From an uncultured Gammaproteobacteria bacterium (GTDB taxonomy: Bacteria > Patescibacteriota > Patescibacteriia > Magasanikbacterales > GWA2-37-8): DNA of 64,000 nt. Position numbers and translations under genes: made by a program. The notes beneath the pieces are model-generated. The model did no database searches. It was not told where the DNA came from and saw only the letters and a list, made by a program, of their open reading frames with translations. The DNA lies in the NCBI GenBank assembly GCA_964510885.1, contig CAZEDL010000001.1, forward strand, positions 64,684-128,683. Reading direction: 5' to 3'. Below, in pieces: positions 49,830 through 53,498 of the stretch; position 1 is the stretch's first letter, and each line of letters opens with the position of its first letter.

Positions 49830-50267
49830 ATGATTACTTTAGATCAAATCGAACAGGAAGCTGAAAAATTCTGTCGAGCTGTTAAATATTCAGTTGAGCA
49901 CCTTGAAGATATAAACGACGGAACTATGGCTCTGCTTAATTCACAGATGGATGCTTTAGACGAATTAGCTGGCCAATTTGACGATCAAGAAGGTTGGGGT
50001 GAAGCCGCAAAAAAAGGTTGGAATATTATAAATGAAGCCAGAGATGAATTCCACACCGCCTTTCCCAAAGAAAAAGAAACCTTTGAAAGAAGGATGGAAA
50101 AAGAAGAAAGAGGCAGTAAAAACTTTTTTTCTGATCTGCAAAGAGACTTGCTTCAAGGTATGAGAAACGATAGGTACAATGATGAAGCAGGGAATATTTC
50201 GCCACGAAGACTAGAAAAATACGGTGAAGATAAAAAATTCGGCCCACCTCCAGGGTTAAAAAGATAA
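49830..50267 (+). CDS. hypothetical acidic protein inserted between atpA and atpG
   Basis: 145-aa ORF lying 2 nt after the atpA stop and 7 nt before atpG. AT-rich relative to the flanking atp genes. Confidence 0.5.
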   Translation: MITLDQIEQEAEKFCRAVKYSVEHLEDINDGTMALLNSQMDALDELAGQFDDQEGWGEAAKKGWNIINEARDEFHTAFPKEKETFERRMEKEERGSKNFFSDLQRDLLQGMRNDRYNDEAGNISPRRLEKYGEDKKFGPPPGLKR

Positions 50268-50274
50268 CTGCAGT

Positions 50275-51162
50275 ATGGCTCTAAGCACCAAAACCATTCG
50301 TCGCCGCATCAAATCCATCAGCAATACCAAGAAAATTACCAAAGCGATGGAGATGATTAGCGCTGTCAAAATGCGTCGCGCCGTAGCGAACACCTTATCA
50401 AGCCGGAGTTATGCCGATCTCGCTTCTGAAATGCTTCACAGCATCGCCGAACAAACCAACGTTAAAAAGCATCCACTACTAGCTCACCGCCCCGCCAAGC
50501 ATATCGCTTTAATTTTTATTACAAGTAATCGCGGTCTGGCCGGCGGCTTCAATTCCAAGCTTCTCCAGGAAGTACACCGCTACATCCTGCGCATGAAAGC
50601 CGAACACAATGCCGCGGTTGATGTCATTTTACTTGGAAAAAAAGGCCGCAAAATTTATCAAAACTTTGGACACACCATCGTATCCGAATTCGAAAAAATT
50701 GATGTTACTACCAAGATCGAAGAAATCCTCCCGATCGCCACGCTGATGAGTCAAGAATTTATTAGCAAAAAATATGATCGAATTGCAGTTGCTTTTACCG
50801 ATTTTGTTTCAGCCTTGCAGCAAATTCCTAAAATAAAAGTGATCCTGCCTCTGAAGCCAGAAGATATGGCAGTTGGCGTTAAAGCCAAAGCATATGCCCC
50901 AATCAACAACCTAACTTTTGAACCAAATACCACCGATGTATTAAACAAGTTGCTACCCCGCCTTATTGAAATGCAATTATACCAAGCTGTGCTAGAATCA
51001 GACGCCTCCGAACACAGTGCTCGCATGATGGCCATGAGAAGCGCAACTGACGCTGCCAAAGATATGATTAAAGACCTACAAACCAGCTTTAATAATGCCC
51101 GCCAAGCCGGTATTACCAAAGAAATTGCCGAAGTAATCGGTGGCGCGGCTGCTTTAGAATAA
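50275..51162 (+). CDS. atpG: F0F1 ATP synthase subunit gamma
   Basis: N-terminal MALSTKTIRRRIKSISNTKKITKAMEMISAVKMRRA and a conserved C-terminus. Confidence 0.9.
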   Translation: MALSTKTIRRRIKSISNTKKITKAMEMISAVKMRRAVANTLSSRSYADLASEMLHSIAEQTNVKKHPLLAHRPAKHIALIFITSNRGLAGGFNSKLLQEVHRYILRMKAEHNAAVDVILLGKKGRKIYQNFGHTIVSEFEKIDVTTKIEEILPIATLMSQEFISKKYDRIAVAFTDFVSALQQIPKIKVILPLKPEDMAVGVKAKAYAPINNLTFEPNTTDVLNKLLPRLIEMQLYQAVLESDASEHSARMMAMRSATDAAKDMIKDLQTSFNNARQAGITKEIAEVIGGAAALE

Positions 51163-51165
51163 AAT

Positions 51166-51804
51166 ATGACAAGCAAATATTCATTTTTTGGTGCCTTGGT
51201 ATTGCTAGTTTTGTTTGGATTTGGCTGCAGCCAAGCTGAGCCAAACACCACGGCCACACCAGACGAAGTCACCTCAGAGACACCTACAGCTCCAGAAACT
51301 ACACCAATTGACGCTCCAAATAACACCAGTGAAATTTCGGCTATTTTTAACAAAGTCGAAGCCCCATTTACATTTGAATACCCGAGTAATTGGAAGGACA
51401 ATAGCTACGAAGCTGCGGAACAAGGGCAAATTTGGCATTTTACTGACGATACCTCTATCCCTGTCATGGGCGTTGTCATTCCACCAAAAAAAATCGGCAA
51501 TTTGTATGACCCAGGACAATTTGATACTTGCGATAGTTTCCCAAGTAAAAAAGACCTGGACATAATATTTAATCCAACCGAAAAAAATCCAGATAAACAG
51601 ATAATCGGCCAGGCCTGCCGCCGGTGCGACGTAAGCGACCCCGAGTGCAAGACACCGCTTGGAGATGTGCCAGATTTAGCCTATATCCGATGGTGGGGTG
51701 GATCGGATCACAAAACCATGAATCTTATACTTTTTAACTCCCAGATTCCAAATTTAATTGAGCTAATAAAGAAGATTGGGCCAACTATAGAGTCTAAAAA
51801 ATAA
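51166..51804 (+). CDS. lipoprotein inserted between atpG and atpD
   Basis: Signal plus lipobox LVLFGFGCS, then a Thr/Pro-rich linker and a Cys-containing domain. 3-nt and 19-nt gaps to the flanking atp genes. Confidence 0.5.
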   Translation: MTSKYSFFGALVLLVLFGFGCSQAEPNTTATPDEVTSETPTAPETTPIDAPNNTSEISAIFNKVEAPFTFEYPSNWKDNSYEAAEQGQIWHFTDDTSIPVMGVVIPPKKIGNLYDPGQFDTCDSFPSKKDLDIIFNPTEKNPDKQIIGQACRRCDVSDPECKTPLGDVPDLAYIRWWGGSDHKTMNLILFNSQIPNLIELIKKIGPTIESKK

Positions 51805-51823
51805 CTCCGATTAATACCTTTCT

Positions 51824-53191
51824 ATGAACACTGGAAAAATCAAACAAATTATCGGTGTCGTTATCGACGTAGAATTCACAGGCAAATTACCTGACCTGTT
51901 TAACGCTCTTGAAACCAAGTTGCCAAATGGCAACACACTTACTCTCGAAGTCCAGCAACACATCGGTGGAGATGTGGTCCGCACCGTGGCCATGAGCACC
52001 ACCGACGGCCTTACCCGCGGCCAAGATGTCACCGACACCGGCAGCCCAATTATGGTTCCGGTTGGCACTGCCACCCTCGGCCGCATGTTCGATGTGGTAG
52101 GCGCTCCGATTGATAATAAAGGTGAAGCTAAGGCTAAAAAGAAATACCCCATTCACCGCTCAGCTCCAGAATTTACTAAACAATCCACACGTTCCGAAAT
52201 CCTCGAAACCGGTATCAAAGTTATTGATCTTATTTGTCCCTTCTTAAAAGGTGGTAAAGTCGGTTTATTTGGCGGTGCCGGTGTCGGAAAAACCGTTATT
52301 ATCCAAGAACTCATCCGCAACATCGCTCAGGAACATGGAGGTTACTCCATGTTTGCAGGCGTTGGGGAACGCAGCCGTGAAGGTAATGACCTCTATCGCG
52401 AAATGAGTGAATCTGGAGTACTTGATAAAACCGCACTCGTCTTCGGCCAAATGAACGAACCACCAGGGGCCCGTGCTCGCGTAGCCTTGACCGCTCTCGC
52501 CATGGCCGAATATTTCCGTGATGAAGAGGGGAGAGACCTCTTATTATTCGTCGATAATATTTTTCGCTTCACCCAGGCCGGCTCCGAAATGTCTGCCTTA
52601 CTTGGACGTATGCCATCTGCCGTAGGGTATCAGCCCACTCTTGCGAGTGAAATGGGCGCCCTGCAAGAACGTATTACTTCAACCGATAAAGGTTCCATCA
52701 CTTCGGTGCAAGCCGTCTACGTGCCGGCCGACGACCTCACTGATCCAGCTCCAGCCACCACCTTTGCTCACCTCGACTCCACCGTTACCCTCAACCGCTC
52801 GTTGGCTGAACTTGGTATCTACCCGGCTGTAGATCCGCTAGATTCAAGCTCCACTATTCTTGACCCGAACATTGTCGGTGACGAACACTATCGCACCGCC
52901 CTCGAAGTCCAGCGCGTCTTACAGCGGTATAAAGATTTGCAGGATATCATTGCCATCCTTGGTATGGAAGAATTGAGCGATGATGATAAAATCACTGTCA
53001 GCCGGGCCCGCAAAATTCAGCGCTTCTTATCCCAACCGTTCTTTGTCGGCACCGTGTTTACCGGTATCGAAGGCAAATATGTGCCAATCAGCGAAACCAT
53101 TCGCGGCTTCCGTGAAATTTTGGATGGGAAACACGATGATAAAGGGGAACAAGCCTTTTATATGAAAGGCGGAATTGATGAAGTTAAATAA
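51824..53191 (+). CDS. atpD: F0F1 ATP synthase subunit beta
   Basis: [10 protein letters not shown]-loop, DELSDED-like C-terminus. Confidence 0.95.
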
Positions 53192-53192
53192 T

Positions 53193-53498
53193 ATGGAATC
53201 CTTTAAATCCGACGAGATCCACAAAACACATGCAGCTGGTGAATTAAGAAAATTCCTTCTATCTGAAGGCATGGTTGATAAAAAAACTGGCGAAATTAAT
53301 ATTGATCACTTTAAAAAATTGCATGAGGAAATATTTACCCTCCCGGGAATCGACAGCATAGCTGAGGATGACGTGCTTCTACAGTCAATGCTTGAGAAAG
53401 TTGCCACAGATCTAGCACTTAAAGCGGAGCATCAAAAAAGCTTTGTAGCGCAAGCTACGCATAGTATCCGAAAAATGCTGCTTAACGAACCGTTATGA
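53193..53498 (+). CDS. hypothetical protein inserted between atpD and atpC
   Basis: ATG 1 nt after the atpD stop. Overlaps the atpC start by 4 nt. Confidence 0.4.
   Translation: MESFKSDEIHKTHAAGELRKFLLSEGMVDKKTGEINIDHFKKLHEEIFTLPGIDSIAEDDVLLQSMLEKVATDLALKAEHQKSFVAQATHSIRKMLLNEPL

Follow-up and report, generated by a model that had tools for sequence, protein, structure and literature searches.

Orphan genes at the subunit boundaries of a patescibacterial F1Fo ATP synthase operon are probably passengers

The 64,000-nucleotide (nt) stretch of DNA analysed here, which we call the window, comes from an uncultured bacterium placed in the Magasanikbacterales (Patescibacteriota; GenBank assembly GCA_964510885.1, contig CAZEDL010000001.1, positions 64,684 to 128,683 of the forward strand) and contains an F1Fo ATP synthase (atp) operon in which three additional open reading frames (ORFs), X1, X2 and X3, lie at the boundaries between the genes for the F1 subunits. 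We find that X1–X3 are real, coding, lineage-specific orphan genes. We consider it probable that they are passenger genes that landed where one cistron of a contiguous atpAGDC block meets the next and that rely on the atp transcript for expression, without having a role in ATP synthase. They would then be one instance of a permissiveness of gene junctions that extends across the Candidate Phyla Radiation (CPR), and it is this CPR-wide permissiveness, more than the X1–X3 locus itself, that is the interesting point.

An ORF listing combined with Pfam and NCBIfam scans places the genes on one strand in an unbroken array, atpI-B-E-F-H-A / X1 / atpG / X2 / atpD / X3 / atpC, with a further orphan, dn1, downstream:

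45731-46045, plus strand: atpI-like small membrane protein, first gene of the operon (Pfam PF09527 ATPase_gene1, E = 3.4e-8)
46061-46843, plus strand: atpB, Fo (Pfam ATP-synt_A, E = 3e-38)
46947-47219, plus strand: atpE, Fo (Pfam ATP-synt_C, E = 4e-14)
47290-47928, plus strand: atpF, stalk (Pfam ATP-synt_B, E = 8e-27)
47915-48298, plus strand: atpH, a short delta subunit (Pfam OSCP, E = 4e-23)
48325-49827, plus strand: atpA, F1 alpha (TIGR00962, 802 bits)
49830-50267, plus strand: X1, orphan of 145 amino acids (aa); coding score 0.30, no family, junction repeated in Logan contig L164
50275-51162, plus strand: atpG, F1 gamma (Pfam PF00231, E = 1e-86)
51166-51804, plus strand: X2, probable lipoprotein of 212 aa; coding score 0.15, no family, junction repeated in Logan contig L001
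51824-53191, plus strand: atpD, F1 beta (TIGR01039, 809 bits)
53193-53498, plus strand: X3, orphan of 101 aa; coding score 0.30, no family, junction repeated in Logan contig L163
53495-53911, plus strand: atpC, F1 epsilon (Pfam ATP-synt_DE_N and ATP-synt_DE, E = 6e-26)
53918-54922, plus strand: dn1, orphan of 334 aa; no Pfam or NCBIfam match, singleton cluster

The packing is tight. X1 starts 2 nt past the atpA stop codon and ends 7 nt before atpG, X2 is flanked by gaps of 3 and 19 nt, and X3 starts 1 nt past the atpD stop codon and shares a 4-nt ATGA overlap with atpC, which completes the six insert boundaries. A first-pass annotation of this DNA, made from the sequence alone, had described this gene order, the placement of the three extra ORFs at subunit boundaries and their spacing of 1–19 nt or overlap, and the ORF listing and profile searches bear out that description.

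That X1–X3 might be non-coding spacers or assembly artefacts misread as genes could be suspected from their lack of homologues and from the apparently metagenomic origin of the genome, for which the three Logan contigs come from two runs, but we regard this as a negligible prospect. Over 20,000 shuffles, the probability of an equally open frame was 0 for X1, 0 for X2 and 0.001 for X3. Codon log-odds were scored with a model built from the window's 37 long genes, giving 0.275 ± 0.109 for these training genes and −0.41 ± 0.17 for off-frames; X1, X2 and X3 score 0.30, 0.15 and 0.30 in the annotated frame, and the other five frames of each insert are negative. X2 also has a real homologue of the same architecture (described below). 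Further, at atpA-X1-atpG, atpG-X2-atpD and atpD-X3-atpC the window agrees at 100% identity with Logan contigs assembled from runs SRR16481186 and SRR16481187; since three independently assembled contigs from two runs are identical, the arrangement is not an artefact of assembly or binning. These contigs are the only copies of X1–X3 found besides the window's own. The G+C content of the inserts (0.384, 0.427 and 0.399 for X1, X2 and X3) is below the 0.44–0.50 of the flanking atp genes, as the first-pass annotation had claimed, but the difference is modest: X1, X2 and X3 rank fourth, twelfth and sixth from the lowest among 59 ORFs, within a window range of 0.31–0.61. Given their host-like codon usage and positive in-frame scores, X1–X3 may be long-resident genes.

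The closest known atp operons lack the inserts. The nearest operons belong to Patescibacteria/CPR, the best being that of a Candidatus Magasanikiibacteriota metagenome-assembled genome (MAG), designated L002, with identities of 85% for AtpA, 88% for AtpD and 67% for AtpG; the best AtpG identity in the metagenome collection is 59%. The synteny comparison that had been proposed in the first-pass annotation shows a contiguous A-G-D-C block in L002, with spacers of 9, 19 and 12 nt at the atpA–atpG (A/G), atpG–atpD (G/D) and atpD–atpC (D/C) junctions. Inserts are also absent at A/G in L004 and L083 and at both G/D and D/C in L008 and L013. When X1–X3 were compared with every ORF of ~160 related loci using tblastn and jackhmmer, nothing was recovered but the window's own copies and P0005, the X2 homologue. 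We infer that the direction of change was gain here and not loss elsewhere.

Some relatives do carry other ORFs at the A/G junction. No relationship among X1 and those of L003, L008, L013 and L101 emerged from BLAST, Smith-Waterman shuffles, hhalign or jackhmmer, and with all four methods negative we rejected the idea of a single fast-evolving A/G family that includes X1. The A/G ORFs of L003 (5657-5998) and L101 (714-1076) have in common only their first nine residues (MPN[TS]KN.Y), encoded where each ORF runs over the conserved atpA 3′ end in a different frame. Such a shared start warns against trusting start-codon calls and apparent "homology" too readily.

How common are such inserts? We called a locus CPR-like if its AtpA is at least 62% identical to that of the window, which is a heuristic boundary, and a junction occupied if it contains at least 150 nt of extra sequence. 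Inserts are present in 17 of 44 CPR-like loci versus 8 of 108 loci from other bacteria (Fisher p = 1e-5), and 26 of 113 junctions (23%) are occupied in the CPR-like loci versus 9 of 298 (3%) in the others (Fisher p = 2e-9), counts that are phylogenetically non-independent. The expectation in the first-pass annotation that this block is contiguous across bacteria therefore holds for non-CPR bacteria, with their 3% of occupied junctions, but not for CPR-like genomes, in which 23% are occupied. The occupied junctions include the following:

23S_rRNA_IVP four-helix-bundle protein: L003 and L004 at G/D, L105 at A/G
GIY-YIG: L021 at G/D
PD-(D/E)XK (PDDEXK_3): L021 and L022 at D/C
Bro-N with a Gp49/HigB-like toxin and HTH antitoxin: L005 at G/D
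ORF6N: L095 at G/D
MazG: L084 at A/G
PQ-loop membrane protein (SemiSWEET-like): L018 at A/G
ORFs without a family: L003, L008, L013 and L101 at A/G, L104 and L105 at G/D
ORF-less spacers of 160–250 nt: L090, L142 and L158

The contents of the junctions in CPR-like genomes are heterogeneous and unrelated to each other, and many of the genes belong to promiscuous families. In the Kuenenbacteria atp operon (L005, 5918-7481), the 1.9-kb G/D insertion consists of a toxin-antitoxin module and a Bro-N protein inside the catalytic block. Neither orphan genes in CPR genomes nor operon passengers are new as such. However, a literature search found no paper describing interrupted CPR atp operons, and within the searchable literature the quantitative enrichment of junction inserts in these operons seems to be undescribed.

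Insertion in this genome extends beyond the catalytic genes. In L002, L003 and L083, a homologue (62–70% identical) of the ABC-transporter gene at 55004-56764 directly follows atpC; in the window, dn1, which is absent from these three loci, starts 6 nt past atpC and separates the two. On the other side, a homologue of 42093-42950 directly precedes atpI in L003, whereas the window has a P-type cation ATPase of 897 aa (42971-45664, DKTGTLT motif) in between. Counting X1–X3, dn1 and the P-type ATPase gene, a stretch of ~14 kb that is otherwise syntenic contains five lineage-specific genes, each at a gene boundary. As dn1 and the P-type ATPase gene flank the operon, insertion here is not specific to atp genes. 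Reading of the junction sequences revealed no duplications or flanking repeats at X1–X3, a dedicated repeat search not having been run, and the inserts encode no recombinase or transposase. In Rfam, the sole match in the window is a tRNA at 6568-6639, with no intron or other RNA family in the operon.

X2 is the most informative of the three proteins. A lipoprotein signal peptide is followed by a linker rich in Thr and Pro and then by a globular domain of ~150 aa, which contains a CxxC motif and two further cysteines. The signal peptide comprises K4, a hydrophobic core, FFGALVLLVLFGFG, and then the lipobox cysteine, C21, within G-F-G-C21; the sequence MTSKYSFFGALVLLVLFGFG-C21 fits the generic lipobox rule. 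Although a word-indexed search of 5.8 billion proteins returned only X2 itself, as a singleton cluster, an index-free HMMER scan of 1.84 billion representatives yielded one true distant homologue, P0005 (228 aa, E = 1.2e-5), for which pairwise BLASTP gives E = 3e-13 at 27% identity. A second candidate from the representative search, P0004 (2934 aa), was discarded as a spurious, repeat-driven match. P0005 has in common with X2 the lipobox cysteine and the surrounding G-x-G-C, an FTF.YP..WK motif and three conserved cysteines. The first-pass annotation had noted a lipobox (LFGFGCS) in one insert and called that protein exported; the predicted lipoprotein signal and the retention of its cysteine in P0005 agree with this, and X2 is probably an exported lipoprotein. 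The neighbours of P0005 are a Mg-chelatase/ComM-like gene on one side and genes for a penicillin-binding protein, a Mur ligase and LspA on the other, with no atp operon. The suggestion that X2 homologues might always sit between atpG and atpD is thus not upheld, as the sole homologue is in a cell-wall locus.

Both X2 and P0005 have weak matches to the same part (~40-94) of the PsbP_2 profile (PF18933; E = 0.023 and 0.016), at 15.1 and 15.7 bits versus a gathering cut-off of 27 bits. The two proteins resemble PsbP-like/Mog1-fold lipoproteins in having a signal peptide, lipobox, low-complexity linker and mixed alpha/beta domain, but differ in that their PsbP_2 scores are far below the gathering cut-off. 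AlphaFold2 models of X2 are of low confidence, with a predicted local distance difference test score of 46 for X2 alone and 38 with a two-sequence alignment. Searches of solved structures with X2 and with an X2 plus P0005 profile gave chance-level matches only, the best being Potempin A (E = 0.015), over the signal-peptide and linker region. That the cysteine-containing, extracytoplasmic domain is PsbP-like is a reasonable but unproven guess.

X1 is acidic (isoelectric point 4.9) and very hydrophilic, with a basic, Pro-rich tail, and is probably a helical, soluble cytoplasmic protein; X3 is probably a small soluble protein of the same helical, cytoplasmic kind. The word-indexed search of the same 5.8 billion proteins, which overlooks relatives below ~35% identity, returned only X1 and X3 themselves, each as a singleton cluster, and solved structures gave chance-level matches only. 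None of the three inserts has a match at a meaningful level in Pfam, NCBIfam, PHROG, PADLOC or the PDB. Searches of PHROGs, PADLOC, IMG/VR and INPHARED gave nothing better than E = 0.02, and with no relatives in IMG/VR or INPHARED we rejected a viral or phage origin. In Pfam, X1–X3 match none of the families seen at the junctions of other CPR genomes (23S_rRNA_IVP, GIY-YIG, PDDEXK_3, Gp49/HigB-HTH, Bro-N, ORF6N, MazG). The possibility that X1 is a degenerate 23S_rRNA_IVP protein, raised by a Smith-Waterman z score of 4.5 against the L004 protein, was rejected: the score falls to 1.2 against its 70%-identical homologue in L003 and there is no Pfam match.

How could such genes arise and be maintained? 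In the reading that we favor, the ancestral operon would have had a contiguous atpA-G-D-C block, and X1, X2 and X3 would each have entered it between two genes. Insertion at so exact a position would leave the neighbours intact and give the newcomer expression at no cost. Lacking promoters, X1–X3 would ride on the atp polycistronic mRNA and would be translated, like their neighbours, from A/T-rich contexts without a Shine-Dalgarno (SD) sequence. In CPR/Patescibacteria generally, boundaries between conserved, highly expressed genes would tolerate and accumulate small, unrelated genes.

The expression signals that can be read from the window are consistent with this picture. With gaps this small, neither a promoter nor a terminator would fit between the genes. 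Neither kind of site is enriched in consensus scans, which found 14 promoter-like sites versus 14.4 expected and 17 terminator-like sites versus 11.5 ± 3.8 expected, none of them at an insert boundary. Judged by their spacing, X1–X3 are very probably co-transcribed with the atp genes. An SD core (GGAG, GAGG or AGGA within −20 to −4) precedes only 4 of 59 ORFs, and the organism appears to use largely SD-independent initiation; the upstream contexts of X1–X3 are A/T-rich and SD-less, like those of the atp genes. The strongest promoter-like match in the region, at 45714-45742 (TTGACG-17-TACAAT, 10 of 12 matches), ends inside the TTG-start atpI ORF as listed. An in-frame ATG follows ~10 nt later, at 45752, and hence atpI may start at this codon on an mRNA with little or no leader. 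A terminator-like hairpin is located inside dn1, at 54162-54183.

Several observations weigh against the passenger reading. The comparison of CPR with non-CPR genomes suffers from the non-independence mentioned above. The closest relative in the collections has an AtpG identity of only 67%, and conservation within a genus or species would fall outside the sample. For X1 and X3, the search of the protein collection was the word-indexed one, which distant homologues, including any in atp operons beyond the sample, could escape. Nothing about X1–X3 marks them as mobile, be it a transposase, repeats, target-site duplications or a nuclease domain. Lastly, tight packing and host-like codon usage also fit functional integration, and of the nine closest genomes five have some unfamiliar helical ORF at A/G, strikingly many if insertion were purely a matter of chance.

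These last two observations could also be taken to mean that X1–X3 are accessory, regulatory or assembly factors, for example offsetting a short delta or modulating F1, that are kept for stoichiometric co-expression while evolving beyond recognition. Their exact position at subunit boundaries, with gaps of 1–19 nt and one translationally coupled overlap, would suit such a role, as would the unusually short delta of the clade (median 133 aa versus 178 aa elsewhere). However, L002, L004 and L083 lack the inserts despite having alpha and beta subunits 78–88% identical to those of the window and an equally short delta; the A/G ORFs are mutually unrelated; identical junctions elsewhere hold toxin-antitoxin pairs and nucleases; and similar orphans occur outside the atp genes of the same genome. 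As X2 is predicted to be exported and the F1 head (alpha3-beta3-gamma) is cytoplasmic, X2 would be unable to contact the F1 head. The inserts have no match at E ≤ 1 to OSCP or any other ATP-synthase-related family in Pfam or NCBIfam (ATP-synt_*, ATPase_gene1, ATP-synt_I, zeta/DUF1476, IF1, ATP11/ATP12), and BLAST against the subunits of their own operon gave no match. They also differ from the known non-core atp genes (atpI/uncI, atpZ-type ATPase_gene1, atpR/atpQ of N-ATPases) and the F1 regulators zeta and IF1. These are likewise small, non-catalytic proteins encoded in, or acting on, F-type ATPase operons, and the window has one, the ATPase_gene1-type ORF at 45731-46045, but they are conserved in many genomes, occupy the 5′ end of their operons and are either membrane proteins or inhibitors of recognizable type, whereas X1–X3 are unique to one genome and lie between the F1 genes. 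The first-pass annotation had offered accessory or assembly factors as one reading and noted that it would suffer if the inserts were missing from all related atp operons and had homologues only in unrelated loci; with the inserts missing from ~160 related atp loci and the one homologue, that of X2, in an unrelated locus, we consider this role very unlikely. A third possibility is that X1 and X3 were born de novo from expanded atp spacers, by transcribed, AT-rich sequence gaining an open frame. Their full orphan status, low G+C content (0.38 and 0.40), shortness and hydrophilic, helix-prone composition would fit, as would the ORF-less spacers of 160–250 nt at these junctions in L090, L142 and L158 and the resemblance of the 3′ end of X1 (TTAAAAAGATAA) to that of atpA (TTTAAAAAATAA). 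Yet, read in frame, X1 and X3 have codon scores as high as established genes have on average, with the other frames negative, the ORFs fill the junctions to within 1–7 nt, which is unexpected for a young ORF, and the searches with X1 and X3 were of limited sensitivity; X2, with its homologue elsewhere, is clearly not de novo. We give a de novo birth of X1 and X3 very little credence.

It is also possible that X1–X3 belong to, or derive from, selfish elements that actively seek out conserved atp sequences by "intronless homing", as unrecognized nuclease- or toxin-type genes or decayed cargo. In phage T4, the genes for free-standing endonucleases are often promoter-less cassettes between conserved genes that join existing polycistronic messages (PMC2988022). 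X1–X3 resemble the T4 seg/mob genes in that they are small genes exactly in the junctions of conserved genes, in the orientation of their neighbours and patchy among close relatives. They differ in having no GIY-YIG, HNH or other nuclease domain and no close copies, in that one is a predicted lipoprotein, and in residing in a cellular host and not a phage; some CPR relatives do have GIY-YIG or PD-(D/E)XK genes at atp junctions, alongside the 23S_rRNA_IVP and toxin-antitoxin genes. A second parallel comes from the insertions in CPR rRNA genes, which carry LAGLIDADG, GIY-YIG and 23S_rRNA_IVP ORFs; the last two families are described there (PMC11270868) and are common to the rRNA insertions and the atp junctions of relatives. 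The same group of organisms tolerates extra ORFs in conserved, highly expressed transcription units, but the rRNA insertions interrupt the gene itself and need RNA removal, whereas X1–X3 lie between cistrons, require no excision and belong to none of those families. The somewhat low G+C content of the inserts would fit homing. By contrast, X1–X3 have no nuclease, toxin or DNA-binding signature, no flanking repeats and no second copy among 15 billion proteins, when a spreading element should have close relatives; their codon usage is host-like, and a predicted exported lipoprotein such as X2 is an unlikely selfish effector. We think such an origin, whether as active or as decayed homing elements, unlikely for X1–X3. 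The first-pass annotation's other suggestion, selfish insertions that exploit a highly expressed operon, fits better than its accessory-factor reading in that small genes of promiscuous or selfish kinds occupy these junctions in other CPR genomes, but X1–X3 themselves show no mobility or nuclease function, and "selfish" would have to be inferred.

For this locus the result is chiefly a warning: tight packing with essential genes is by itself no sign of a common function, and X1–X3 are best left as "hypothetical protein" and not annotated as ATP synthase subunits. A bolder idea, which we put forward with little confidence, is that the junctions of conserved CPR genes such as atpA/G/D/C serve as systematic landing sites for a diverse and largely uncharacterized set of small genes, selfish or manipulating the host, which use homing-like recombination on the conserved flanks to spread, with X1–X3 as previously unseen members, or else that at least one of the three is a clade-restricted partner of the short-delta ATP synthase. 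Should junction permissiveness be confirmed by a genome-wide survey with control operons, the "interrupted rRNA" peculiarity of CPR would extend to protein operons, and the junctions would offer a simple means of collecting new mobile or passenger genes of small size.

The delta subunit itself deserves comment. The delta/OSCP protein of the window (atpH, 47915-48298) is 127 aa long and matches only positions 68–172 of the OSCP profile. The median length of the maximal delta ORF is 133 aa in CPR-like loci (n = 30) versus 178 aa in other bacteria (n = 63); the exceptions among CPR-like loci L002-L109 are L026 (Clostridia MAG, 192 aa) and L100 (154 aa). Approximately 45–50 residues seem to be absent from the N terminus. 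The N-terminal region of delta binds alpha, and the short delta common to CPR-like loci is a separate lead on how the peripheral stalk attaches. The short delta is independent of the junction inserts. Neither X1 nor X3 can be taken for a split-off N-terminal domain of delta, an idea that we rejected since neither matches OSCP and relatives without inserts also have a short delta.

Other features of the operon and window are worth recording. The atpE ORF, listed with a TTG start, would encode a c subunit of 90 aa, but Pfam aligns only from residue 29 onward and relatives from about residue 14–27; the true start is probably an internal ATG (MDSISHEN..., around 46989). The b subunit encoded by atpF (212 aa) has an Ala/Thr/Pro-rich N-terminal extension of ~45 aa (47290-47430) ahead of its membrane helix. 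Alignments with the b subunits of L003, L004 and more distant relatives start only at residue 42–47, while those with L002 and L008 start from residue 1–2, which suggests that the extension is variable or lineage-specific relative to L003, L004 and the more distant relatives. Finally, a protein of 147 aa encoded at 24128-24571 contains two tandem zinc-ribbon-like motifs, CxxC...QLPFQP.GD.PVYC.DC.

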